A stretch of 64,000 nucleotides of DNA from Patescibacteria group bacterium (GTDB lineage: Bacteria; Patescibacteriota; Microgenomatia; UBA1400; MFAQ01). Shown here in pieces: positions 738-58,432 of this stretch. The stretch lies in NCBI GenBank assembly GCA_943355005.1, contig CALRDV010000002.1, positions 397 through 64,396 on the forward strand. The letters run 5' to 3'. A model generated the notes under the pieces. That model worked only from the letters and a program-made list of their open reading frames with translations, was not told where the DNA came from and did not search any database. The number at the start of each line of letters is the position of its first letter. The first letter of the stretch is position 1. Position numbers and translations under genes: made by a program.

Positions 738-2229
<1,492 letters not shown>

Positions 2230-2473
2230 AAAAAAAATTGAATAGATTTCGTCACTCTCACCACTCTTTATATGACAAAAATTGTAGAAAATATTATTCT
2301 GCTAATAAATATTCTCTGCTGTTGCTTTACTTGTTAATGAACTTGGATATTTTAACAGCCAGTTCGAGCCTCCGCAAGTATGTCTTTTTAGTGACACTTT
2401 TGAAGATCTAACCACTTTCCGAAAACCCAAATCGGTACGTTTATTTTAGCACAACTAATCTCTTACAGCATCT

Positions 2474-2499
2474 GTCATTCCTGGCTTGACCCGGAATCC
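2474..2499. repeat. Type-A palindromic element GTCATTCCTGGCTTGACCCGGAATCC.
   Basis: Inverted repeat ATTCC..GGAAT; family recurs at least 14 times in the window. Confidence 0.85.
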
Positions 2500-2512
2500 A
2501 GTCCCAACACTT

Positions 2513-2551
2513 GTCATTGCGAATCTCGTACTCGAGCTGTGGCAATCCAGG
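2513..2551. repeat. Type-B palindromic element GTCATTGCGAATCTCGTACTCGAGCTGTGGCAATCCAGG.
   Basis: Same GTCATT...AATCC frame with a longer core; 6 copies in the window. Confidence 0.85.
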
Positions 2552-2558
2552 CATTCTC

Positions 2559-2593
2559 GTCATTCCAACCGAGCACAGCGAGTGGAGGAATCT
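2559..2593. repeat. Type-C variant GTCATTCCAACCGAGCACAGCGAGTGGAGGAATC. It is the third of three stacked elements upstream of the 16S.
   Basis: Shares GTCATTCC...GGAATC termini; a related copy is at 9965. Confidence 0.7.
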
Positions 2594-2705
2594 CCCTCTA
2601 CCCACGCTCAAAAACCACCCCATAACTTGACTTTAGCCTCATTCTGTGCTAAACTCTGCCATCAATCGCCGCTAGGCGTGAACCTTAAAAAGAAAGGAGG
2701 TTTCC

Positions 2706-6742: not shown

Positions 6743-7900
6743 TTATACAATTACCCCGCCACCCAAACACTCTCCGCCTTCTGTGTAGAATACTGCACTC
6801 TGTCCGGCCGCGATTCCTCGAATATCTTTATCCAGGATTATCGTCAGCCCATCTCCCATTTCCATCCCCCTTGCGCCAATTAATTCCCCACCATGACGAA
6901 TTCTCACCAAGAGATCATCCATATTCCATTTAGTTTTCGATATTTTATTTATCTCCCCCACCTCAAACTGATCCTCCATGGCGTCATCGGATTCTCCCAC
7001 CACCAATTCATTTTTTTTCGCATCTTTGGAAATCACATAAAATATTGGCGTCTCATTGTCATTGCGAGTTTCGTACTCGAACCGTGGCAATCCAGGAATT
7101 ATTTTATCCTTAGATAATTTTTTTTGAGCCGTTGGATTCATTACCCATCCACCTCTTTGTCCAATGGTATAGAACCACACTCCATCATGAGTTCCCACCT
7201 CATTTCCCTCGGTATCCAACACTTTTCCAACTTGCTTCTTTAATCTTCTGGCCAGAAATTCTTTCACTTCCACATTCCCTACGAAGCAAATTCCCTGACT
7301 ATCTTTGCGGTCGGCCACACTAAGCTTTGCTTCTTTAGCCAATTCTCGCACTTTACCCTTTTCAAAGTCTCCAAGGGGAAAAAGCACACGAGCCAGCTCT
7401 TTCTGAGTCAATTTCCATAGAAAATATGTTTGATCTTTATGTTTATCTTTCGGTATCAGAAGACGTCCCCCGGCCAGTTTTGCATAATGTCCTGTCGCAA
7501 TAAAGTCAAAGCCATTCTCCATCGCCCAGTCAAGGAAAAGTCCAAACTTAATCTCACTGTTACACAATACATCCGGGTTCGGAGTTCTCCCGGCTTCATA
7601 CTCCTCATAAAAATATTTAATCACTCTTTGGTTATATTCTTCGGAGAAATCCAAAACCTTAAAGGGAATTCCCAATTCCAAGCAAGTTTGCAAAGCCATC
7701 TGTCTATCCTCATCGGCTCTACAGCCATTTTTCTTTATCCATTCTTCCCTTGTAATACCATCTTTTTCAATCTCACTTTTCGGTGGCCAGCAATACAAGT
7801 GAACTCCAGTCACGTCATAACCCGCCTTTTTCAAAAGCAACGCACTTACGGCGCTATCCACGCCTCCGGAAATCCCTACAGCCACTTTTAATTGATTCAC
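6743..7900 (-). CDS. mnmA: tRNA-specific 2-thiouridylase MnmA (GTG start), carrying an in-frame type-B repeat insertion (peptide IIPGLPRFEYETRNDNETPIF).
   Basis: N-terminal PP-loop SGGVDS, conserved MnmA core, ORF uninterrupted through repeat 7058-7096. Confidence 0.85.
   Translation of the reverse strand: MNQLKVAVGISGGVDSAVSALLLKKAGYDVTGVHLYCWPPKSEIEKDGITREEWIKKNGCRADEDRQMALQTCLELGIPFKVLDFSEEYNQRVIKYFYEEYEAGRTPNPDVLCNSEIKFGLFLDWAMENGFDFIATGHYAKLAGGRLLIPKDKHKDQTYFLWKLTQKELARVLFPLGDFEKGKVRELAKEAKLSVADRKDSQGICFVGNVEVKEFLARRLKKQVGKVLDTEGNEVGTHDGVWFYTIGQRGGWVMNPTAQKKLSKDKIIPGLPRFEYETRNDNETPIFYVISKDAKKNELVVGESDDAMEDQFEVGEINKISKTKWNMDDLLVRIRHGGELIGARGMEMGDGLTIILDKDIRGIAAGQSAVFYTEGGECLGGGVIV
7058..7096. 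repeat. Type-B element inside mnmA (GTCATTGCGAGTTTCGTACTCGAACCGTGGCAATCCAGG).
   Basis: Repeat family member; translated in frame. Confidence 0.85.
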
Positions 7901-9360: not shown

Positions 9361-11061
9361 TCATTTAAAAATTTCCATATTTCTCTCACACAGCTCATAC
9401 CCCGGCCTCTGCACCAGGCACTCTTCAAACTTTTTCTTCGCCTCTTCCTTTTTTCCCGTCCAAGAATAATAAAGTCCCCAGTTATTTAGTAGCTCTGGAT
9501 ATTTCGGATATATTTCATCCGCTTTCTCCATAAATTTTTTGGCATTCTCCAAATCATTCTTCATCAGATATATCGCCGCCTTATTACTCTGCGCCATCAC
9601 ACTTCCTGTCGCCACCCCACCATCATGCAAAAACAGTCTCTCTTGAGACAACCAGTCCAAATTCCTGACAAATGTCCTCCCCGCCAACAAAAATAATATT
9701 GCAATAAATATCGGTGCAGAAGAATAGCCAAACAACCGCACGGACCATGTACATGAGAGCCGAAGGGGATCCCGCTTTTCAGCGGGACGAAACAGTAACG
9801 CGGGAGTACGGTTTTTGGCGGTCTTCGAACCGATTAACATTGCAATCATCACCACCCCCAAACTAGGCAAAAACCAAAGTCTCTCTCCAAATATAGTTCC
9901 AATCGGAAACAAAATATTCCCGGTAATCAATATCGGACCCCAAAACATCACCATCCCCACCATCGTCATTCCGAGCGACCTGCCCGCTGTGGCGGGAGTC
10001 GAGGAATCCCCCTCCACCCCATCAGTCATTCCGGGCTTGACCCGGAATCTATATAAATAAATACAACTTAATGCAATCATCACCAGCCCCACCACCACCC
10101 TCCAATCAGTCCAGCTCTCCACCAACTTAATTTGGTTATACGAATAGTCATAGCTAAGATTTATTGGAAAGAGAACTTTCCCGACTCCAAAAGGAATCAA
10201 AGCTATCCCGTTTATCATTCTTTTTTCCGCACTAACAAACTTAAGAGGATTCTCCACCATCGTCGCTCTTGTTTCCATTCCACCTCCACCCAGCACCAGT
10301 AGCCTCATCATCCCAAATCCCAACATTGCCATTATCACCAGTATCATCGCCGCTGTCTTTTCACTTGCGGAAGTTCCATTCGATGACTTGTCATTCCCGA
10401 CCTGATCGGGAATCCATCCGGAGACTCCACCACCTCTAATAAATATCAAATACATTAATATCACCACTCCCACCACCGCCGTCTCTTTCGACAGCATCGC
10501 CAAAAACAAAAATAACGCACTCACATCCCATCTATTCTTAAAGTTTTCCAGAATAGCCAAAAGCATAAATCCAAGTGAAAGCATCTCCGCCCTTCCCACG
10601 ATATTATTCACCACCTCGGTATGAATCGGCATCACCACAAACACCAACGCCCCCCAAAACGCCAACTTCTCTCGCCATTTGTCATTGCGAATCTCGTAGT
10701 CGAGCCCTGCCTGCCGGCAGGCAGGTGTGGCAATCCAGGAACCATCAAGAAACTTTCTCATCACCCCATACACCAGCCAACACACCCACGAATATAGCAG
10801 CACATTACCAAGCCGAAATCCCCAAGCCCCCTTACCGGTTATTAAAGAATTCAAATAGAAACTAAAGCTCGTCATCGGTCTATACAGAGATTTCTCCTGA
10901 TCCAAATAGTAGTACGGTCTCGTCCACACTTTTATCAAGCTTTCCACTCTTCCCATCCCCGGATCTCCCGCAATCACTTTTAGGTCGTCCTGCACAAATC
11001 CACCAAAAATACTCACAAAATACAAAGCAAACGCAGATAAGAAAATTACCCAACCCTTCAT
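9361..11061 (-). CDS. Multi-pass membrane GT-C-like glycosyltransferase with C-terminal TPR repeats (TMTC/PMT-like; DD motif in first loop). The ORF stays intact across five repeat-element insertions.
   Basis: N-terminal TM helices with FVQDDLKV motif, C-terminal TPR (AIYLMKNDLENAKKF...YYSWTGKKEEAKKKF); repeat-derived peptides LDYEIRNDK, WIPDQVGNDK, KPGMTDGVEGDSSTPATAGRSLGMT. Confidence 0.65.
   Translation of the reverse strand: MKGWVIFLSAFALYFVSIFGGFVQDDLKVIAGDPGMGRVESLIKVWTRPYYYLDQEKSLYRPMTSFSFYLNSLITGKGAWGFRLGNVLLYSWVCWLVYGVMRKFLDGSWIATPACRQAGLDYEIRNDKWREKLAFWGALVFVVMPIHTEVVNNIVGRAEMLSLGFMLLAILENFKNRWDVSALFLFLAMLSKETAVVGVVILMYLIFIRGGGVSGWIPDQVGNDKSSNGTSASEKTAAMILVIMAMLGFGMMRLLVLGGGGMETRATMVENPLKFVSAEKRMINGIALIPFGVGKVLFPINLSYDYSYNQIKLVESWTDWRVVVGLVMIALSCIYLYRFRVKPGMTDGVEGDSSTPATAGRSLGMTMVGMVMFWGPILITGNILFPIGTIFGERLWFLPSLGVVMIAMLIGSKTAKNRTPALLFRPAEKRDPLRLSCTWSVRLFGYSSAPIFIAILFLLAGRTFVRNLDWLSQERLFLHDGGVATGSVMAQSNKAAIYLMKNDLENAKKFMEKADEIYPKYPELLNNWGLYYSWTGKKEEAKKKFEECLVQRPGYELCERNMEIFK
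9713..9836. repeat. Copy A of an about 90-125 bp dispersed repeat (GGTGCAGAAGA.TAGCCAA....TTTTTGGCG.GGT.TTCGAACCGAT), in frame inside CDS 9361..11061.
   Basis: Aligns with 13960-14072 and, at the termini, with 49734-49822. Confidence 0.75.
9965..10009. repeat. Type-C element GTCATTCCGAGCGACCTGCCCGCTGTGGCGGGAGTCGAGGAATCC, in frame in a CDS.
   Basis: GTCATTCC...GGAATCC termini with internal palindrome. Confidence 0.8.
10025..10064. repeat. Type-A element plus TATATAAATAA extension, in frame in a CDS.
   Basis: GTCATTCCGGGCTTGACCCGGAATC followed by TATATAAATAA, as at 12944 and 15437. Confidence 0.8.
10390..10415. repeat. Type-A element GTCATTCCCGACCTGATCGGGAATCC, in frame in a CDS.
   Basis: Identical core to the copies at 12919, 15412 and 47065. 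Confidence 0.85.
10681..10739. repeat. Type-B element with a nested 20-bp perfect palindrome (CCTGCCTGCCGGCAGGCAGG), in frame in a CDS.
   Basis: Equals the 2513 copy plus an internal palindromic insertion. Confidence 0.8.
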
Positions 11062-11969: not shown

Positions 11970-12923
11970 CTACCTCACCATCTCCCTCGCCACATTTATT
12001 TCCGGGAATGCTTTTTCAAACCACTTGAATTGTGCAGTTCTATTCACTTCAAAGATTCTCCACTGCTTAGCCTCTTCATCCCAAGCCACATCCAGCCCTG
12101 CAAAATCAGCCTTAAGAACTTTCGTTGCCTCGACACTTAGTCTTTGCAATTCTGCCATCTGCTCTTTACTAAACTTCGGTTTAATTTTCGATAGCTCTTC
12201 CTGCTGAGATAGCACTTGGAACTTATCTTTTTGTCTGTGTTTCATCATCCCCAATATCTCTCCATTTAGCACCAACACTCTATACCATCTTCGTACTTTC
12301 AAAACAGGCTGAATCAAGACGTCTCCCTCACTATATTTCTGAGAAAGTTTTACCAGGCGGGTCAGTGATTCTGCTAGTTTCACATTTTTTCCATGAGATC
12401 CAAATCTCGCCTTGACCATTACCGGCACAAATTCTCCTTTCCGTTTAGATAGTATTTCCAAATATCTTTTCCATCCTCTAGCCCCACGGAAAGATACAAA
12501 CGGAATTACCGGTAGTCCCGCTTCAGCCAGCAATATTCCTTGTTCAAGTTTCCCCATAAGTGGAAACATCTTAAAGCTTTCCCCATTGATCACAGAAATA
12601 TCTCTCTCTGAATTTTTCGTTTGCTCCAAGAACTCCAAAATCACCGACTTCACCCCTAGCATACTTTCCCCACCTCTTTTAGTCGCGGCTCTCGGGATAA
12701 TCAAATCATATTCACTCAGTTTTTTTCCGGTTCCCAAATCTACAATTGGCTTACCCATCTTGCTTACACCAATTCGCACATGTTCATAGTTCACCTTATC
12801 CACGGAATATCCCAAATTACTCGCCTCTTCGGCTAATCTCTTGGGTTCATACTCCCCTCTAAATCTAGTCAATATTAATATCTTTTTCATTACTTTTCTT
12901 GATGTCGTCTTAATATCTGTCAT
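11970..12923 (-). CDS. ATP-grasp ligase, RimK/alpha-L-glutamate-ligase-like. The true start may be the internal ATG at 12890 (MKKILIL); the extreme N-terminus of the track ORF overlaps a repeat element.
   Basis: ATP-grasp signature regions (…EFVPVMVKARFGSHGKNV…, …FAGLDVAWDEE…WRIFEVN); about 300 aa. Confidence 0.7.
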   Translation of the reverse strand: MTDIKTTSRKVMKKILILTRFRGEYEPKRLAEEASNLGYSVDKVNYEHVRIGVSKMGKPIVDLGTGKKLSEYDLIIPRAATKRGGESMLGVKSVILEFLEQTKNSERDISVINGESFKMFPLMGKLEQGILLAEAGLPVIPFVSFRGARGWKRYLEILSKRKGEFVPVMVKARFGSHGKNVKLAESLTRLVKLSQKYSEGDVLIQPVLKVRRWYRVLVLNGEILGMMKHRQKDKFQVLSQQEELSKIKPKFSKEQMAELQRLSVEATKVLKADFAGLDVAWDEEAKQWRIFEVNRTAQFKWFEKAFPEINVAREMVR

Positions 12924-12958
12924 TCCCGACCTGATCGGGAATCTATATAAATAATTCC
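12919..12958. repeat. Type-A element plus TATATAAATAATTC extension.
   Basis: GTCATTCCCGACCTGATCGGGAATC TATATAAATAATTC. Confidence 0.85.
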
Positions 12959-15400: not shown

Positions 15401-15411
15401 TATTTTTCATT

Positions 15412-15450
15412 GTCATTCCCGACCTGATCGGGAATCTATACAAATAATTC
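15412..15450. repeat. Type-A element plus TATACAAATAATTC extension.
   Basis: GTCATTCCCGACCTGATCGGGAATC TATACAAATAATTC. Confidence 0.85.
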
Positions 15451-19638: not shown

Positions 19639-22092
19639 TCAGGCAACCACAAAGTTAATTGTTTTTCCTTTAATATAAATTATCTTTTTAATTTCTCCAG
19701 CCAATAAATATTTCTCCAATTTTTCAATCTTCTTAACTGTATCTACAACAGCTTCCTCAGAGGCATCATTCTCCACTTCTATTGTCTCTCTCATTTTTCC
19801 ATTTATTTGGACAGAAATAGTTATCACATCGGTCATCAAATATTTTTCCTCAAATTTCGGAAATTCTTGAGCATGGACACTAAACTCTCCACCCAATAAA
19901 TTCCAAAGTTCTTCTGTTACAAAAGGAGCAAACGGAGCCAGCACCTTTACGACTCTGCCCAAATCTTCACTGCTTACCTCCGCTCCACTACGAAGCAACG
20001 CGTTTGTTGTCTCCATTAGTTTCGCAATTACTGTGTTGAACTTAAATTGAGACAAATCTTCTCCAGCACCTTTTATTAATTTATGAATCAACCTGGAACT
20101 CTCCAAGTCGGTAACCACATACTTTCCGGCGTTCTCAGTCACAAGCCTAAATATTTTCTCGATAAATCTTCTAACGCCCACCAGTGATCTTTCATTCCAC
20201 GCCATAGTCGAATCAAATGGTCCCATAAACATCATGTAGGTCCTCAGGACGTCCGCTCCGTAGGTTTCGGCCACTACATCGGGTACGATTACATTCCCCT
20301 TACTTTTACTCATTCTGTTGCCATCTGGTCCCAGCAGTACCCCATGAGACAGTCTCTTTTTATATGGCTCAGGATAAATTTTTGGCACCACCCCCAAGTC
20401 CCACAAGAACTGATAGATAAATCTTGAATAAAGTAAATGCAAAGTGTTATGTTCATCTCCACCCACATAGACATCCACCGGCATCCAGTACTCCATTTTT
20501 TCTTGACTGGCTAACATTTCTCTATTTTTTGGGTCACAATATCGAAGAAAATACCAGTCACTTCCGGCCCAGTTTGGCATCGTGTCGGTTTCTCTTTTTG
20601 CTTTTCCACCACAATTCGGACAAGTCGTCTCGACCCATTCTTTTATATTGGCGAGTGGTGACTCTCCTGTGTCGGTCGGCTGGTACTTCTCGACCTCCGG
20701 CAAAACCACTGGCAAATCTTTTTCTGGAACTGGTATCCACGACCCTGTCATTCCGGGCTTGACCCGGAATCCATCCCCCTCCGGTACACAATTCTCACAC
20801 CAGATCATCGGAATGGGCTCCCCCCAATAATGCTGTCTAGAAAAAATCCAATCCCTTAAGTGGTATGTCACTGCTTTTTCTCCAAAGCCCTTTTCTTCTA
20901 TAAGACTGATTATCAAATCATCCGGCACAAATTCAGAATCTATCGGCAAATTATATTTATCGGCAAAAGCCTTATCCCTATCATCGTGTGCTGGCACCGC
21001 CATAATCGCTCCGGTTCCGTAACCCATGAGAACATAATCACTTATCCAAATTGGAATTTCTTTATTGTTAAGCGGATTTACGGCATAAATTCCCGTAAAG
21101 ACGCCTGTCTTCGCTCTGGTGTCATCAGTTCGCTCAATCTCACTCCTCCCCTTCACCTCATCAAGGTATCTTTTAATGTCATTCCTGGCTTGACCAGGAA
21201 TCCATCCAATTAATTCCGAATTCTCCATCAAATGCTTCACCATCGGATGCTCCGGAGCCAATACCAAGAAAGTTGCCCCCGGTAAAGTATCCGGTCTCGA
21301 AGTAAACACCTCAAGAATATCAGTTTCACTCTTCCTCCCTGTCATTCCGGGCTTGACCCGGAATCCATCTGGAGTTTTTATTTCAAATTTTATCTTTGCC
21401 CCCTCTTTCTTCCCTATCCAATTAACCTGTGCCGCCTTAACTTTTTCGATAAAATCAGTATCTTTCAAACCTTCGAGCAATCGATCTGCATAATCCGTGA
21501 TTTTCACTACCCATTGTGAGATAGTTCTCTTTTCCGTTTCAGATCCGCATCTTTCACATTTACCATCAATCACCTCTTCATTAGCCAAACCAATTTTATC
21601 TTTGGGGCACCAATTAATCGGCATCTCTTCTTTATGAGCCAATCCTTTTTCAAAAAGTTTTACAAATATCCATTGCGTCCATTTGTAGTAGTCCGGCATT
21701 GTTGAGTTCACTTCTCTATCCCAATCAAAAGAAAATCCCAGTTTCCTCATCTGCATCCGGAAATTGTCAGTCACTTCTTTGGTTATTTCTTTTGGATTTT
21801 TTCCGCTCTTTATCGCATAGTTCTCCGTTGGAAGCCCGAATGCGTCCCATCCCATGGGGAACATCACATTTTTTCCCATCATCCTTTGGTATCGGGCATA
21901 GACATCGGCTCCAGTCATAGCAAACCCATGTCCCACATGTAGCCCGCTTCCGGATGGATAAGGAAACTCGGTCAGCATATAGAATTTTTGTTTATCTGCT
22001 TCAAAGTCCAGACCTTTATAGCCGGCAAAACCGTCATACTTACCTATCCACTTCTTCTCAATTTCCTTAAAATCATAGCTTGCCATACGCAT
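19639..22092 (-). CDS. leuS: Leucyl-tRNA synthetase with three in-frame type-A repeat insertions. The likely start is MRMASYDF (ATG at 22092 or 22086); the track ORF start at 22110 is the SD translated.
   Basis: Class I HMGH/KMSKS motifs (…PSGSGLHVGHGF…, …KMSKSKGN…), conserved LeuRS N-terminus YDFKEIEKKW; inserts GFRVKPGMTGRKSE, WIPGQARNDIKR, GFRVKPGMTGSWIP. Confidence 0.9.
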   Translation of the reverse strand: MRMASYDFKEIEKKWIGKYDGFAGYKGLDFEADKQKFYMLTEFPYPSGSGLHVGHGFAMTGADVYARYQRMMGKNVMFPMGWDAFGLPTENYAIKSGKNPKEITKEVTDNFRMQMRKLGFSFDWDREVNSTMPDYYKWTQWIFVKLFEKGLAHKEEMPINWCPKDKIGLANEEVIDGKCERCGSETEKRTISQWVVKITDYADRLLEGLKDTDFIEKVKAAQVNWIGKKEGAKIKFEIKTPDGFRVKPGMTGRKSETDILEVFTSRPDTLPGATFLVLAPEHPMVKHLMENSELIGWIPGQARNDIKRYLDEVKGRSEIERTDDTRAKTGVFTGIYAVNPLNNKEIPIWISDYVLMGYGTGAIMAVPAHDDRDKAFADKYNLPIDSEFVPDDLIISLIEEKGFGEKAVTYHLRDWIFSRQHYWGEPIPMIWCENCVPEGDGFRVKPGMTGSWIPVPEKDLPVVLPEVEKYQPTDTGESPLANIKEWVETTCPNCGGKAKRETDTMPNWAGSDWYFLRYCDPKNREMLASQEKMEYWMPVDVYVGGDEHNTLHLLYSRFIYQFLWDLGVVPKIYPEPYKKRLSHGVLLGPDGNRMSKSKGNVIVPDVVAETYGADVLRTYMMFMGPFDSTMAWNERSLVGVRRFIEKIFRLVTENAGKYVVTDLESSRLIHKLIKGAGEDLSQFKFNTVIAKLMETTNALLRSGAEVSSEDLGRVVKVLAPFAPFVTEELWNLLGGEFSVHAQEFPKFEEKYLMTDVITISVQINGKMRETIEVENDASEEAVVDTVKKIEKLEKYLLAGEIKKIIYIKGKTINFVVA
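20747..20772. repeat. Type-A element inside leuS.
   Basis: GTCATTCCGGGCTTGACCCGGAATCC; translated as PGMTG... on the minus strand. Confidence 0.85.
21178..21203. repeat. Type-A element inside leuS.
   Basis: GTCATTCCTGGCTTGACCAGGAATCC; translated WIPGQARND. Confidence 0.85.
21341..21366. repeat. Type-A element inside leuS.
   Basis: GTCATTCCGGGCTTGACCCGGAATCC. Confidence 0.85.
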
Positions 22093-22113
22093 AATTTTAA
22101 CACCCTCCATATC

Positions 22114-22150
22114 GTCATTGCGAGGAGGTACTCCGACGTGGCAATCTACC
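22114..22150. repeat. Type-B variant in the leuS 5' region (GTCATTGCGAGGAGGTACTCCGACGTGGCAATCTACC).
   Basis: GTCATTGCGA...GTGGCAATC frame. Confidence 0.75.
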
Positions 22151-22175: not shown

Positions 22176-22931
22176 ATGCAAACAGTCATAGATGGAATTC
22201 TTACGAACTATGAAGTTTTCAATCCAAAGGCCAAGAGCACCCTTGTTATCCTTCATGGCTGGGGTTCATCCCTTCAGTTTTGGGTTCCCATAGCGAAAGA
22301 TCTACATCCAAATTTCAAGATTGTCCTCCTCGACCTTCCCAGTTTTGGAGCTACTTCTCCTTTGCTGGGTGACCCCAATATTCCGGACTATACTAACTTT
22401 GTTCATAGTTTTATAAAAAAAATAGAAATAGTGAAGTGCACTTTGGCAGGACACTCCTTCGGTGGTCAAATTACTTTAGATTACGCACTCAAATTCCCTG
22501 ACACCCTAGAGTCTATAATTCTTATTTCTCCTGCTGTTGTGAGAGAGAGGTCTAAAGAAGCTAAATTAAAGATTCAATTAGCCAAAATTCTAAGACCAAT
22601 TTTTTCAATCTTGCCCAGACACAGTTTTGAAAAATTTTTAGGCTGGTACACTCCCAGAGATTACAGCGATTCCACAGAATACCAAAGAGGTGTATTAAAA
22701 AAAATCGTTATTTACGACCTAAAACCTCATTTGATACGAGTAACTGTTCCTACCGATATCATCTGGGGTAGTGAGGACTTCGTCATTCCTTACATGGGAA
22801 AATACCTCGCCGAAAATATTAAAAACAGCAAGCTTCACGTAATTTACGGCGCTAACCATCTTCTATATCTAAGTCATCCTAAAAAATTAATTGAAATACT
22901 TAACGGAATATTGGAAAGAATCTATGCTTAA
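22176..22931 (+). CDS. Alpha/beta-hydrolase fold protein. Apparently leaderless: TATAAT at 22163 sits 7 nt before the ATG.
   Basis: HGWGSS and GHSFGG nucleophile-elbow motifs. Confidence 0.7.
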   Translation: MQTVIDGILTNYEVFNPKAKSTLVILHGWGSSLQFWVPIAKDLHPNFKIVLLDLPSFGATSPLLGDPNIPDYTNFVHSFIKKIEIVKCTLAGHSFGGQITLDYALKFPDTLESIILISPAVVRERSKEAKLKIQLAKILRPIFSILPRHSFEKFLGWYTPRDYSDSTEYQRGVLKKIVIYDLKPHLIRVTVPTDIIWGSEDFVIPYMGKYLAENIKNSKLHVIYGANHLLYLSHPKKLIEILNGILERIYA

Positions 22932-27414: not shown

Positions 27415-28479
27415 TTAATAATTAAAGTCACCCATATAGATTATCTCGTCCGCTAATTCTACTCCTACAGTTTCTCTAGCCCGCTTTACTATCTCATTTC
27501 TCACGGCCAAGTAATCCTTTGCGGTCGCCGCACCAGTATTAACGATAAAGTTATGGTGTTCAGAGCTTATCATCGCTCCACCCACGTTGAAGCCTGTCAT
27601 ATTTAGAATATGCTCTACTATATATCCGGTGGCAGTCGTCGGATATCCAAGTATCTCTTTCGCCGATTCGGAAATATTTTTAAACACACACCCGGCCGAG
27701 TTTACCGGCTGGCATGACTTTCTTTTTCGCCACTCCTCTGCCACATATCTAGCCCTGTCTAAGTCTCCCTTCTTTAAAGACAAAACCACTTCCAAGACTA
27801 TCTCTCCGGTTTTTTGTATTCTCGATTTATCATATTCAAATCTCATACTCTTGGCGGGAATTTTCAAAACATCTCCTTGCTTGGTAAGAACCACTACACT
27901 GGAGACTATTTCTGAGAATACATGGCTTCCTCCGTGAATATTATTAAATACAGCCCCTCCCAAGGTACCGGGGATTCGGCTATACCACTGCAATCCGGAT
28001 ACTCCGATATCAAACATTTGCATCATGGCCACCTGAAGATTTACCCCACTATCTATTGCCACCTCAATATCCGGATATTCACTTTCGTCATAATTTAAAT
28101 CACCAAAGTCATACTTCATTGTTCCTTCCTTTGCCGCCATCCACCTCGCCTCCCCAACGACTTCGTCATTGCGAGCGTACTCGCGTGGCAATCTACCTGC
28201 ATCAGACTTTATTTCTATTTTTCCCCCTTTATTTTTTATCACCAATCCTCGAATTCCCAAGTCACTTACCAGAACATTACTTCCTCCACCTATTACTGTC
28301 ACCGGCACTCCGAATGTTCTAGCCAGTCTGACCGCTTTAATTAATTCTCCTGAATTGGTGGATTCGTAAAAATAATCGGCCGGCCCTCCGATTCTAAGGG
28401 TTGTGTGAGAAGACAAGGGCTCGTTCAGTCTCACCCTTTCCTCACCCAAGCTCTTGATTAGTCCGTCTACATTACTCAA
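27415..28479 (-). CDS. murB: UDP-N-acetylenolpyruvoylglucosamine reductase with an in-frame type-B repeat insertion (peptide GRLPREYARNDEVVGE).
   Basis: FAD-binding TLRIGGPADYFYE; C-terminal MurB domain; ORF continuous through repeat 28165-28198. Confidence 0.85.
   Translation of the reverse strand: MSNVDGLIKSLGEERVRLNEPLSSHTTLRIGGPADYFYESTNSGELIKAVRLARTFGVPVTVIGGGSNVLVSDLGIRGLVIKNKGGKIEIKSDAGRLPREYARNDEVVGEARWMAAKEGTMKYDFGDLNYDESEYPDIEVAIDSGVNLQVAMMQMFDIGVSGLQWYSRIPGTLGGAVFNNIHGGSHVFSEIVSSVVVLTKQGDVLKIPAKSMRFEYDKSRIQKTGEIVLEVVLSLKKGDLDRARYVAEEWRKRKSCQPVNSAGCVFKNISESAKEILGYPTTATGYIVEHILNMTGFNVGGAMISSEHHNFIVNTGAATAKDYLAVRNEIVKRARETVGVELADEIIYMGDFNY
28165..28198. repeat. Type-B variant inside murB (GTCATTGCGAGCGTACTCGCGTGGCAATCTACC).
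   Basis: Family termini; in frame. Confidence 0.8.
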
Positions 28480-31695: not shown

Positions 31696-31711
31696 ACTTA
31701 CACCAACCTAT

Positions 31712-31737
31712 GTCATTCCTGGCTTGACCAGGAATCC
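31712..31737. repeat. Type-A element between aspS and glyQS.
   Basis: GTCATTCCTGGCTTGACCAGGAATCC. Confidence 0.85.
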
Positions 31738-31760
31738 ATTCAATAAATACTACTAAAAAA

Positions 31761-47002: not shown

Positions 47003-47022
47003 ACAATCACTCTCAGACACTC

Positions 47023-47047
47023 GTCATTCCTGCGAAGGCAGGAATCC
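47023..47047. repeat. Type-A element GTCATTCCTGCGAAGGCAGGAATCC.
   Basis: Family termini. Confidence 0.8.
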
Positions 47048-47064
47048 ATCAAATAAACTCCAAT

Positions 47065-47090
47065 GTCATTCCCGACCTGATCGGGAATCC
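47065..47090. repeat. Type-A element GTCATTCCCGACCTGATCGGGAATCC.
   Basis: Identical to the 10390 copy. Confidence 0.85.
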
Positions 47091-47117
47091 ATATGGAACA
47101 TTTTATCAATTTTAGAT

Positions 47118-51967: not shown

Positions 51968-51993
51968 AACCCCGGTATCACCGGGGTTTTTTA
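51968..51993. terminator. Terminator hairpin (ACCCCGGTATCACCGGGGTTTTTT), shared with the end of convergent argS.
   Basis: 7-bp GC stem plus T6. Confidence 0.7.
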
Positions 51994-53703
51994 CATCTTA
52001 TCCACCGTCTCAATTCCCAGAAGTTCCAATCCACTTTTAATCGCAAGCCCGGTAACCACTACCAGTAGCAGTCTCATATTTTCTTCCGGTACCCCAATCA
52101 CCCTATTTCTGTCATAAAATCCATTAAACTTTTGAGCCAGTTCAAACAAAGTTTGGCAAACTAGATGTGGAGCATAATTCTTGGCCGCCGACTCCACCAT
52201 CTCACCTTCGCCAATTCTTAGCACCAGCCATCTGGCTAATTTTTTTTCATCTTCATTCAACATTACTTCGCCATCTCGACCGTAGTGGAGAGATCTCACA
52301 CCATCAATGCCCGCCTTTTCCAGAACCCCCTTTGTTCTAACGTAGACATACTGTAAATACGGCCCACTATTCCCTTCCATACTCAGGGCCTCTTCCCATC
52401 TAAAAACATAGTCCGATTCCGGCGATCTTCTTAATTCGTTATACTTCACCGCTCCCAGCCCAATTTTCTCCGAAATTTCTTCCGATACCCTTTCCTTGGC
52501 AATTGCTCTAGCCTCTTCACCGGCTCTATCGAGAAGTTCTTCAAGCTTTACGGTTCTGCCTTTTCTGGTGCTCATTTTTCCTTCAGGCAATGTCATCATT
52601 CCGTGCGCTACGTGCTTATATTGCACATCACCTGCTTCATTCCAAAGCTTTTTTACAATATCGAATACTTGTCGAAAGTGTAAGGTTTGTTCCGCACCCA
52701 CTTCGTATATATACAAGTCGGACTTAAGCTCAGAATCATCCAGTCTTTTTCTTATGGTTGCCAGATCCCGTGTAATGTAAGTTGTTGTCCCGTTACTTTT
52801 TTGTATCATTGCGGGCGGCATATACTCTTTTCCGTCTTTTTCAAACTTCACAATTATTGCTCCTCCTTCACCCGGTTCGGCCACACCGGACTCCACAGCA
52901 TCTTTTATTATCTCCGGCATCATGTGCTCATAAGAGCTTTCACCGTACTGGTGATCGAACTTCACCCCTAGTTTTTTATAAATCACTTCGAATTCTTTCA
53001 TAGAAACATCAATACATTGTTTCCATATCTTTCTGGCAGATTCATCTCCCTTTTCCAGTCGCGCAAAAGCTTCTCTCGCCTTATCTTTTAGCTCCGGATC
53101 TTCTTCTATTTTCTTATTAAAATCGACATAGAGCGTTTCCAGATCAGACACCAACATGCTTGACACATCCAAAGAATAATCTTCTACGGCGGCAATGATC
53201 ATCCCAAACTGTGTTCCCCAATCCCCCAAGTGGTTGTCGTTGGTCACCTCTGCTCCACAGTGCCTGTAAAGATTCATTAGCGCCTGACCAATAATCGTAG
53301 ACCTTAGGTGTCCTACCGAAAATCTTTTGGCTATATTCGGTGACGAATAGTCCACCAGCACCCGTTTGCCACTCATAAATTCACTATCGGCACAGTGCCC
53401 ATCTTTCTGAAGCATTTCATTTAATCCTTCAATTAACACCTCATCCTTAATCCAAAAATTAATAAATCCCGGACCAGCTACCTCTATTTTTTCAACCACC
53501 TCCATCAACCTTTCATTCTTGTTTATTTTTTCGACTACCTCGTTTGCTAACTCTCTCGGATTCTTTCCCAAAGTTTTAGCCATCACCATAGCAATATTCG
53601 TGGCATAATCTCCCATTTTTTCGTCACCCGGATGATCCACCGAAAAATTATGCCCTTCAAAAATTTCCTTAATCGCTTTTTGTATTGTTTCTTTTATCTT
53701 CAT
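51991..53703 (-). CDS. argS: Arginyl-tRNA synthetase.
   Basis: …SSPNIAKRFSVGHLRSTIIG…, class I core; 570 aa. Confidence 0.85.
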   Translation of the reverse strand: MKIKETIQKAIKEIFEGHNFSVDHPGDEKMGDYATNIAMVMAKTLGKNPRELANEVVEKINKNERLMEVVEKIEVAGPGFINFWIKDEVLIEGLNEMLQKDGHCADSEFMSGKRVLVDYSSPNIAKRFSVGHLRSTIIGQALMNLYRHCGAEVTNDNHLGDWGTQFGMIIAAVEDYSLDVSSMLVSDLETLYVDFNKKIEEDPELKDKAREAFARLEKGDESARKIWKQCIDVSMKEFEVIYKKLGVKFDHQYGESSYEHMMPEIIKDAVESGVAEPGEGGAIIVKFEKDGKEYMPPAMIQKSNGTTTYITRDLATIRKRLDDSELKSDLYIYEVGAEQTLHFRQVFDIVKKLWNEAGDVQYKHVAHGMMTLPEGKMSTRKGRTVKLEELLDRAGEEARAIAKERVSEEISEKIGLGAVKYNELRRSPESDYVFRWEEALSMEGNSGPYLQYVYVRTKGVLEKAGIDGVRSLHYGRDGEVMLNEDEKKLARWLVLRIGEGEMVESAAKNYAPHLVCQTLFELAQKFNGFYDRNRVIGVPEENMRLLLVVVTGLAIKSGLELLGIETVDKM

Positions 53704-53728
53704 ATTCGTTATTTTTCACTCACCATTC

Positions 53729-53769
53729 GTCATTGCGAGTTTCGGTATTCCGAACCGTGGCAATCCAGG
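53729..53769. repeat. Type-B element in the argS leader, between the T-box terminator and the start codon.
   Basis: GTCATTGCGAGTTTCGGTATTCCGAACCGTGGCAATCCAGG. Confidence 0.85.
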
Positions 53770-58044: not shown

Positions 58045-58080
58045 CTTTTTATCATACTAGAATTTTTTATGCCAAATTTA

Positions 58081-58127
58081 GTCATTCCGGGCTTGAATCG
58101 GCCGCTGGTACCCGAAGGGGTGAATCC
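58081..58127. repeat. Type-A element with internal insertion (GTCATTCCGGGCTTGAATCGGCCGCTGGTACCCGAAGGGGTGAATCC). It supplies the C-terminal codons and the stop of the upstream CDS.
   Basis: Family termini; overlaps the 3' end of ORF 58082..58432. Confidence 0.75.
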
Positions 58128-58432
58128 ATCCGGATTTTTCTTTCAACTATTTCCTCTTTAATTTGTTTCAGTTTCCACATAAACATTTTTCCTTTACTTC
58201 TGGCTCCGGCATCCATCACAAAACTTTTGGCCCGTTCCACCAGCTCTCTGGGGTTGCTTTTCACGATTCTCATGTATATTGCTGTGTGAGCCACGTCATC
58301 CAAAGCCAAGGCCAGCCTGTAGGCATAGTCCTGCCATTCCCTACTTATTCTCTTTTGCTTGGTCTCGTCTATCTCGTACTTATCCAAGATCTTCGTCATC
58401 GAACTAAAACCTATTTTATTCATCTTTAACAT
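58082..58432 (-). CDS. Hypothetical protein, 116 aa. Its last about 16 residues (…RMDSPLRVPAADSSPE) are encoded by a repeat element.
   Basis: ORF; the C-terminal tail maps onto repeat 58081-58127. Confidence 0.45.
   Translation of the reverse strand: MLKMNKIGFSSMTKILDKYEIDETKQKRISREWQDYAYRLALALDDVAHTAIYMRIVKSNPRELVERAKSFVMDAGARSKGKMFMWKLKQIKEEIVERKIRMDSPLRVPAADSSPE

Follow-up and report, generated by a model that had tools for sequence, protein, structure and literature searches.

Short hairpin-forming repeats that carry an unpaired tag, and that can be read in frame within protein-coding genes, have been described in several bacterial groups. Here we examine 64,000 nucleotides from a Patescibacteria group bacterium (contig CALRDV010000002.1 of assembly GCA_943355005.1, positions 397 to 64,396 of the forward strand; hereafter the window), in which three copies of a 26-bp palindromic repeat lie within leuS, the gene for leucyl-tRNA synthetase (LeuRS). 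The closest described relatives are the CGTC-tagged REPs (Di Nocera et al. 2013, BMC Genomics 14:522, PMC3733652), which have a CGTC head that is often TGTC (CCTC is accepted too), a stem of 8-9 bp that opens with complementary A and T at its first two positions, a loop of 4 nt in family 1 and of 5 nt in families 2-4, and a tail that is mostly CCA. Described in five phyla, these repeats occur predominantly as head-to-head dimers, a trait that is typical rather than defining. They are dispersed, most of them between unidirectional or convergent genes, and some lie in frame inside genes, including many genes of Rickettsia conorii: the peptides listed for intragenic copies include VIPAKAGI, WIPWSNHGMT, VIPWLDHGI and DSRFRGND (PMC3733652, Additional file 3), and CGTC-1 dimers lie in frame in the glycyl- and isoleucyl-tRNA synthetase genes of the alphaproteobacterium Erythrobacter litoralis (PMC3733652). 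The same study equates CGTC-1 with the dRS3 repeat of Neisseria, and CGTC-1 and CGTC-4 with RPE-6 and RPE-4, respectively, of Rickettsia conorii.

The dRS3 repeat has in turn been extended to a longer element, NTS (consensus CGTCATTCCCGCGMAVGCGGGAATCYRG), that is the target of a small nuclease (Chenal et al. 2025, Nat Commun 16:2388, PMC11893778). This nuclease, SsnA, is a GIY-YIG protein of 94 aa that binds NTS only as single-stranded DNA (ssDNA), and only the one strand that reads GTCAT, and cuts a few bases upstream of it; three bases upstream of the palindrome are needed for cleavage and a C right after the palindrome is needed for binding. NTS and SsnA modulate transformation in Neisseria, the arrangement NTS-ssnA-NTS resembles an insertion sequence (IS), related motifs occur in many bacteria, and only 2% of NTS copies in N. 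meningitidis lie inside genes (PMC11893778).

Two further classes of repeat invite comparison. The Rickettsia palindromic elements (RPEs) lie in frame in conserved essential proteins, where they are tolerated in loops, as in the case described here. RPE-1 is 100-150 bp long and codes for 30-50 residues, compared with units of ~30 nt in the window, and the RPE host is an alphaproteobacterial endosymbiont rather than a bacterium of the Candidate Phyla Radiation (CPR). GTAG-tagged REPs and REPINs are likewise short tagged hairpins of high copy number that are thought to be handled as ssDNA by a dedicated single-copy enzyme, but their tag is GTAG and their partner is an HUH Y1 transposase rather than a GIY-YIG protein.

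Palindromic repeats read in frame within LeuRS

The leuS gene and the three repeats within it are as follows.

19639..22110, minus strand: leuS, an intact open reading frame (ORF) for an 823-aa LeuRS, host of the three elements
21340..21368, plus strand: element copy 1 in leuS, with head TGTC, stem ATTCCGGG, loop CTTGA and tail CCAT
21177..21205, plus strand: element copy 2 in leuS, with the stem variant ATTCCTGG/CCAGGAAT
20746..20774, plus strand: element copy 3 in leuS, read as GFRVKPGMTG (aa 447-456), right after the CxxC of the zinc-binding motif

The initial annotation of the window had placed three 26-bp copies at 20747, 21178 and 21341, and a pattern search bore this out: GTCATTCC-N11-GGAATCC occurs exactly on the plus strand at 20747-20772, 21178-21203 and 21341-21366. 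With up to two mismatches allowed, the pattern has ten matches in the window, all on the plus strand, against 0.08 expected from shuffled sequences. A version with three mismatches was discarded as mostly noise (102 matches against 81 expected). Beyond the ten pattern matches, a unit with a 4-nt loop at 47022 is an eleventh copy of the same type, which we refer to as ATTCC-type after the start of its stem. These repeats are very probably CGTC-tagged REPs, members of the superfamily that includes dRS3/NTS, RPE-4 and RPE-6, scattered in a Collierbacteria-like genome, those in coding sequence lying in frame in tolerant loops.

The three copies keep the reading frame of leuS, as had been claimed, and are read as GFRVKPGMTG, WIPGQARND and GFRVKPGMTG within one uninterrupted ORF of 823 aa (gene callers place the start six codons later, giving 817 aa). 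Copy 1, read on the minus strand (aa 249-258), lies inside an insert of ~14 aa at the start of the editing (CP1) domain, and copy 2 (aa 303-311) lies within the same domain; copies 3 and 1 are identical over 33 nt (GATGGATTCC...GGAATGACAGGG on the coding strand). Conserved LeuRS sequence adjoins the copies, as was also noted at the outset: the first two inserts border the segment SRPDTLPGATFLVLAPEHP, and the peptide stretches spanning insert junctions include ...TPDGFRVKPGMTGRK... and ...GWIPGQARNDIK.... The frames of the 26-mer had been described as open in two cases on one strand and in one on the other; the actual count is two per strand, so that four of the six are open, and the closed frames owe their stop codon to a TGA from the loop (CTTGAC, plus strand) or to a TGA from AATGAC (minus strand). 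As ssDNA, each leuS copy folds into an 8-bp stem with a 5-nt loop (z = -3.0 to -3.8 relative to shuffled sequences).

Several lines of evidence indicate that the segments are insertions into an otherwise conserved LeuRS. The ORF is full length (E = 5e-188 against the T. thermophilus LeuRS 1h3n) with all expected Pfam domains, it is 100% identical to the called 817-aa protein on a 255-kb contig, and the closest LeuRS proteins in databases come from Candidatus Collierbacteria, Shapirobacteria and 'Microgenomates', which places the genome in the CPR (Patescibacteria). In the alignment to 1h3n the three segments coincide exactly with gaps of 12, 9 and 15 residues, and insert 1 falls in the editing domain's first hairpin, insert 2 inside that domain and insert 3 after the first CxxC of the zinc motif; the names of these parts follow what we take to be the domain layout of the 1h3n structure. 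Most of the 120 closest orthologs, which come from Collierbacteria, Shapirobacteria and other Microgenomates and are typically 771-777 aa long compared with 823 aa here, lack the three segments, and about 15-19 of the 120 have an insert at one or more of the three sites. In order to follow the inserts at the DNA level, we read the sequences of four related genomes (L001-L003 and L126) codon by codon at the insert sites, and the peptide was found only where the palindrome was present; no case of the same peptide without its palindrome was seen in these four genomes. The expectation that the segments are lineage-specific indels coinciding with DNA palindromes thus held against 1h3n, the 120 orthologs and the DNA of the four genomes. 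Insert lengths, both in the leuS gene of the window and in the ortholog loci, are always multiples of three.

The distribution of inserts among orthologs points to repeated use of the same sites. P0002, the nearest ortholog at 83% identity, has neither insert 1 nor insert 3; at site 2 it reads RWIPDQVGNDIK and carries an element at the identical nucleotide position with another stem variant, ATTCCCGA/TCGGGAAT. The more distant P0057 has elements at all three sites and shares inserts 1 and 3 with the window at the same nucleotide positions. One of its elements is read in the other open frame, and a partial duplication of 14 nt behind it brings the frame back; the element at its site 1 is a decayed copy and no counter-example to the coincidence of peptide and palindrome. 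The inserts that P0057 shares may equally stem from repeated insertion at one and the same place or from a loss in P0002. A recombined leuS segment as their source was rejected, because sliding identity reveals no such tract outside the insert. At the three leuS sites, other orthologs have either another palindrome with a TGTC head (TGTCATTGCGAG...GCAATC, translated as IASVRNTETRND and the like) or a GC-rich hairpin. The presence of different elements at the same three sites across lineages marks these sites as recurrent insertion hot spots.

Site 3 of leuS in L003 is occupied by an unrelated GC-rich hairpin (GGGCGGAC-gcgggg-GTCCGCCC, read as DTGGRGGPPLQG), which indicates that this LeuRS site accepts several kinds of palindrome.

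With regard to how such inserts are accommodated, the coding copies that we see sit in an open frame and in a loop that tolerates extra residues, and the leuS ORF is intact; the copies that persist would be the tolerated ones. An AlphaFold model of the LeuRS has a mean confidence score (pLDDT) of 84.6, and values below 50 occur only at the N-terminus, at aa 252-260 (insert 1) and at aa 446-450 (insert 3), consistent with toleration of the inserts in loops. For insert 2 the model confidence is intermediate, and the segment continues into a helix. In-frame elements are also found in MurB, MnmA and a TMTC-like protein encoded in the window, which argues for a genome-wide habit of insertion.

Family assignment and spread across phyla

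The ATTCC-type copies are units of ~29-30 nt. Neither their T/C-GTC head nor their CCA(T) tail is paired, and the 8-bp stem begins with ATTCC in every case. Across the 11 copies the stem, ATTCCNNN/NNNGGAAT, is perfect in ten and has a single mismatch at 2473; the loop is CTTGA or CCTGA (5 nt) in ten and GAAG (4 nt) at 47022. The head is TGTC in nine copies, CGTC in one and AGTC in one, and the tail is CCA in eight and CTA in three. A second family, [CT]GTCATTGCGAG...GTGGCAATC[CT]A, with a CGTC or TGTC head, occurs at 2512, 7057, 10680, 22113, 28164 and 53728, and two long ATTCC-type units lie at 2558 and 9964. The window copies thus have the head, stem, loop and tail by which CGTC REPs are recognized, those with a 5-nt loop fitting CGTC-2 and the 4-nt-loop copy at 47022 fitting CGTC-1. 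Like CGTC REPs they are interspersed, mostly between unidirectional or convergent genes, with some intragenic and in frame, and their peptides are of the same VIPAKAGI and ...GMT/...ND types; the copy at 47022 translates to exactly VIPAKAGI, the peptide listed for intragenic R. conorii CGTC-1 copies. They differ from the published CGTC REPs in their CPR host, in being intragenic in nine of ~20 cases, and in having an additional, longer TGTCATTGCGAG subfamily. Miniature inverted-repeat transposable elements are marked by terminal inverted repeats around an internal segment and by a directly duplicated target; the unit here is a single hairpin throughout.

The relationship to NTS is close but not one of identity. 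The conserved flanks (C/T)GTCATTCC...GGAATCC are common to dRS3/NTS and to the window copies, and 47022-47049 differs from the NTS consensus at three of 28 positions, two of which form a compensatory pair (no match of this quality is expected by chance); a related genome, L126, has an NTS-like match with two mismatches. The single mismatch that Chenal et al. allow is not reached in the window, so that the copies are close relatives of NTS and not canonical NTS. The window loop is mostly of 5 rather than 4 nt, and nearly half of the units here are intragenic.

The initial annotation had likened the leuS repeats to RPEs, and this likeness proved to be closer than analogy, since RPE-6 and RPE-4 are classed as CGTC-1 and CGTC-4 and the peptides are of the same kind. 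LeuRS, MurB and MnmA each carry an in-frame palindrome in a conserved gene that is missing from most LeuRS orthologs and from the solved MurB and MnmA structures, the pattern by which RPEs are recognized, and the window copies and RPEs are probably related by common descent. This kinship is drawn from the published equivalence of RPE-6 with CGTC-1 and of RPE-4 with CGTC-4 and from the similar peptides (VIPAKAGI, WIPW..GMT), rather than from RPE DNA. It had further been remarked that no equivalent was known from a CPR genome; this stands to the extent that the literature we searched yielded no relevant report linking CPR or Patescibacteria to REP-type repeats, while the element itself turns out to be widespread and to belong to a described family. 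As in-frame CGTC-1 copies are already listed for the E. litoralis synthetase genes, the phenomenon, tRNA synthetases included, is not new. What is new is the host lineage, the density in coding sequence, the LeuRS hot spots and the strict orientation described below.

To gauge how far the hairpin extends, we scanned one genome per species with the pattern GTCATTCC-NNN-CYYGA-NNN-GGAATC, which leaves the inner 3+3 stem bases free. At least 120 stretches from many phyla carry the hairpin, and the counts that follow refer to the 132 copies among the matches listed. These come from Ignavibacteria, Bacteroidota, Campylobacterota, Beta- and Gammaproteobacteria, Dehalococcoidia, Nitrospirota, Elusimicrobia, Spirochaetes, Planctomycetes, Cyanobacteria, several CPR groups and a Methanosarcinales bin. 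The inner stem is complementary in 118 of the 132 copies, against two expected, and is built from 18 different triplets; the commonest tail is C-CA. Complementary stems on this scale and in so many phyla indicate that the hairpin is under selection or is faithfully copied, and that it is not a CPR invention. Whereas REPINs are lineage-specific and vertically inherited, the window hairpin is nearly identical across phyla. Inverted partner hairpins are common in the other phyla.

Some of these loci show further arrangements. Exact matches to the NTS consensus occur in Thermodesulfovibrionales and Nitrospirota bins (L070, 7792-7819; L086, 333-360), in each case as the inverted partner ~20-30 nt from a 5-nt-loop hairpin, and these pairs show that the 4-nt-loop and 5-nt-loop types form mixed dimers. 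A contig binned as a Methanosarcinales archaeon carries a hairpin of bacterial type (L082, 367-391), which could reflect a real transfer or a binning error. Eight loci, mostly from Bacteroidales (L007, L013, L033, L057, L058, L074, L089 and L097), have tandem truncated 5' halves upstream of a complete hairpin, for example GTCATTCCCGGCYYGACC-TCTTC every ~23 nt, and these arrays look like repeated partial duplication or nested insertion.

Orientation, the Ssn nuclease and alternative readings

All copies in the window point the same way. The head NGTCATT[CG]C occurs 22 times in the window, always on the plus strand and never on the minus strand, and a palindrome follows it in 20 of the 22 cases. 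The plus strand has a GC skew of -0.26 across the whole window; in related loci, the GTCAT strand is the C-rich strand in ten of 11 cases. By the usual convention, this skew makes the GTCAT strand the leading-strand template, the strand least exposed as ssDNA. The copy at 31711, which lies between plus-strand genes, keeps the chromosomal orientation although flanking transcription runs the other way, and this points to replication rather than transcription as the relevant process. Such a bias may arise if exposure of the cleavable strand is selected against, or if insertion is itself directional. A universal orientation rule was rejected: across the 120 genomes listed there is no bias relative to local GC skew (66 against 55), so the bias is specific to this lineage.

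Among the genes found near the hairpin, one family stands out; the neighbour expected in a system of the Ssn type is a single-domain GIY-YIG gene of ~94 aa (cd10448). When we clustered the ORFs within 1.5 kb of the hairpin in the 120 loci listed, the only recurrent family was a small GIY-YIG protein, found at four loci. In these same 120 loci, tblastn points to five: a homologue of ssn lies within ~150 bp of the hairpin at four (L018, L033, L077 and L087), and at the fifth, L040, the matching 25-mer lies inside an ssn-like match. The locus from Candidatus Peribacteria (L077), itself a CPR group, consists of a hairpin, 35 nt, a gene for a 94-aa GIY-YIG protein, and an inverted hairpin; the protein is confirmed as PF01541 and has Y6, Y17 and E64 at positions that were mutated in N. 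meningitidis SsnA. With the Peribacteria protein as the query, Ssn-type proteins of 94-97 aa and 64-89% identity are found in Ignavibacteria, Bacteroidota, Omnitrophota, Absconditabacterales and Francisella tularensis (P0121-P0240), which suggests from sequence that they have often spread horizontally; such identity across phyla fits the near-identity of the hairpin across phyla. Homologues of ssn elsewhere, that of the CPR locus included, are thus flanked by the same hairpin variant as is found in the window. The GTC before the palindrome and the C after it, which match the bases critical to SsnA, are invariant in all 11 ATTCC-type copies of the window.

The ssn homologue at L077 (6650-6931) contains a TGA codon in frame; its coding sequence is intact only when TGA stands for Gly, which fits the alternative genetic code of the Peribacteria group.

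For the lineage of the window itself, we infer a link to Ssn by analogy. The sequence considered as a candidate ssDNA target of Ssn is TGTCATTCCGGGCTTGACCCGGAATCCAT; following Chenal et al. 2025, the hairpin would act as ssDNA and serve as the recognition site of the small GIY-YIG nuclease, hairpin-ssn-hairpin units would be IS-like, and orphan hairpins such as those in the window may be their non-autonomous relatives. A bolder and rather doubtful extension holds that in Collierbacteria-type CPR these CGTC/NTS-type hairpins, all pointing one way with the Ssn-cleavable strand being the C-rich one, form an active, replication-tied ssDNA system that repeatedly hits loops of LeuRS, MurB and MnmA and steadily supplies new surface peptides, perhaps together with an Ssn filter on incoming ssDNA, a filter suggested by the dependence of CPR bacteria on DNA uptake.

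Several observations weigh against the assignment to mobile CGTC REPs with an Ssn-type partner. The window lineage differs from the Neisseria system in that tblastn searches of the window, of the 10 kb that follow it and of ~75 kb from four related Collierbacteria loci revealed no homologue of ssn. No GIY-YIG protein or transposase appears among Pfam-annotated gene calls over 9.6-64 kb of the window and 10 kb past its right end, and the 10-kb extension beyond the window has no further hairpins. For CGTC REPs in general, a transposase has not been found and mobility has never been demonstrated (PMC3733652). The window copies are singletons apart from one head-to-tail pair (47022/47064), share one orientation and form no head-to-head dimers, in which they differ from published CGTC REPs. 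No target-site duplication is visible at the three leuS sites, where the empty sites available for comparison are too diverged for a firm reading (the nearest genome has 83% LeuRS identity). That the inserts are transcribed and translated, as 9-16 extra residues, is a prediction for this organism. Finally, the published expression for Ssn-related motifs (SRMs), HGTCWYN(0-2)YYVSBRHN(0-5)WNVSBRGN(0-2)RNCYNB has no match in the window; it was hand-built from 29 genomes (PMC11893778), and it is too narrow for this stem and loop variant, a search heuristic rather than a definition.

An unlikely alternative is that the hairpins are kept for a host function and are more than tolerated selfish insertions, either as Ssn-type marks that limit integration of incoming DNA or as RNA or DNA hairpins that affect expression or replication; it partly overlaps with the assignment to CGTC REPs. 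The stem complementarity kept across phyla through 18 stem triplets speaks for it, as do the different, fully compensated stems of the window genome and P0002 at the identical position of LeuRS site 2, the single chromosomal orientation of 20 of 20 window elements and of almost all in related loci, and the modulation of transformation by NTS with SsnA in Neisseria (PMC11893778). The hairpins are, however, patchily present even among close relatives, P0002 lacking two of the three inserts, and decayed copies exist (P0057 site 1; 58080 in the window). Moreover, both site-2 stem variants belong to multi-copy subfamilies in this genome, so that replacement of one copy by another explains the apparent compensation as well as selection does. 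Removal of the elements from the mature product, whether by an intron-, intein- or bypass-like process, or decay of leuS as a pseudogene, is very improbable: each element should form a stable hairpin in the mRNA too, but these ~30-nt units lack intron or intein features, no Rfam family other than 16S rRNA is matched in the window, the insert lengths are multiples of three with open frames, neither of which splicing needs, all LeuRS catalytic motifs and domains are intact, and R. conorii proteins that bear RPE-1 are expressed in vivo (PMC3733652).

GTAG-type REPs or REPINs moved by a RAYT protein, or IS200/IS605-type ends, share with the window copies the short hairpin with an unpaired head, and the strand bias recalls single-strand transposition; yet the head is T/C-GTC and not GTAG, no Y1 transposase is found in gene calls over 9.6-64 kb of the window and 10 kb beyond, and the only gene that recurs beside the hairpin in the 120 loci listed encodes a GIY-YIG protein, which makes this account very improbable. 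There is even less to be said for assembly or binning artefacts. The genome was assembled from a metagenome, and its contig breaks off at the rRNA operon, but the ORF is uninterrupted, two sources list the protein, on a 255-kb contig, and independent NCBI, ENA and JGI assemblies of related organisms have elements in frame at the same three sites. That the segments are ordinary lineage-specific LeuRS loops, with the palindromic DNA a coincidence or a by-product of the peptide, we regard as next to impossible: variable loops do occur at these positions in many lineages, but the same 26-mer turns up between genes, within other genes and in other phyla, its LeuRS copies use two different reading frames, ten copies occur against 0.08 expected, and most orthologs lack the segments.

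Read as CGTC-tagged REPs, the leuS repeats extend a known class of hairpin repeats (CGTC REPs, dRS3/NTS and the short RPEs) to the CPR, and indicate that even in very small CPR genomes a large share of the coding sequence in essential genes can be occupied by repeats. What are taken for 'CPR-specific insertions' in conserved proteins, as well as odd annotated starts, can stem from such elements, which are therefore worth masking in alignments, phylogenies and structure predictions. As the elements are ~30 nt long and nearly identical across phyla, they offer a sensitive marker of horizontal exchange, and the one-way orientation together with the hot spots provides a clean system for the study of how Ssn-type hairpins spread.

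Other copies in the window

Outside leuS, the following elements were identified in the window.

9964..10052, plus strand: two adjacent elements in the ORF of a TMTC/TPR-like membrane protein (9361-11061, minus strand)
10389..10417, plus strand: 26-mer copy in the TMTC-like ORF, read as WIPDQVGND
10680..10737, plus strand: second-family element in the TMTC-like ORF, TGTCATTGCGAATC...GTGGCAATCCA with a nested CCTGCCTGCCGGCAGGCAGG palindrome, read as IATPACRQAGLDYEIRND
28164..28195, plus strand: second-family element in murB (27433-28452, minus strand), read as GRLPREYARNDE
7057..7094, plus strand: second-family element in mnmA (6743-7900, minus strand), read as PGLPRFEYETRNDN
22113..22148, plus strand: second-family CGTC element CGTCATTGCGAGGAGGTACTCCGACGTGGCAATCTA in the leader of leuS, 3 nt upstream of the ORF
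2473..2595, plus strand: cluster of three elements (2473, 2512 and 2558) upstream of the 16S rRNA gene (738-2235, minus strand)
12918..12946, plus strand: intergenic 26-mer copy whose GGAATGAC supplies the ATG called as the start of a RimK-like gene
15411..15439, plus strand: intergenic 26-mer copy between two minus-strand genes
31711..31739, plus strand: intergenic 26-mer copy between two plus-strand genes
47022..47092, plus strand: head-to-tail pair between convergent genes, a 4-nt-loop unit (47022-47049) and a 5-nt-loop unit (47064-47092)
53728..53767, plus strand: second-family element just upstream of the ORF 51991-53703 (minus strand)
58080..58132, plus strand: disrupted copy, with the 5' half AGTCATTCCGGGCTTGA, ~24 unrelated bases and then GAATCCATCC

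Nine of the ~20 units in the window lie in coding sequence: three in LeuRS, four in the TMTC/TPR-like protein, one in MurB and one in MnmA. The adjacent pair in the TMTC-like ORF consists of a long, imperfect, CGTC-headed palindrome of ATTCC type (9964-10010) and a 26-mer copy (10025-10050) that is read as FRVKPGMT. The elements in murB and mnmA lie within segments of ~40 aa and ~22 aa, respectively, that are absent from the solved MurB and MnmA structures. Immediately outside leuS, the element at 22113-22148 occupies the divergent intergenic region between leuS and a plus-strand gene at 22176, and it could affect leuS expression.

An Rfam scan of the window matched only the 16S rRNA, and no tRNA was found. 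The cluster at 2473-2595 lies 240-360 nt upstream of the 16S rRNA gene, and the window forms one end of a 255-kb contig that breaks off shortly after that gene. The ATG within GGAATGAC is the start of the RimK-like ORF (11970-12923, minus strand) both in the ORF list and in the public annotation (317 aa); translation more probably begins with MKKILILT, eleven codons downstream, in which case the hairpin would lie in the leader. The disrupted copy at 58080-58132 overlaps the 3' end of an ORF at 58082-58432 (minus strand), and represents either the decay of an element or an insertion into the loop of one.

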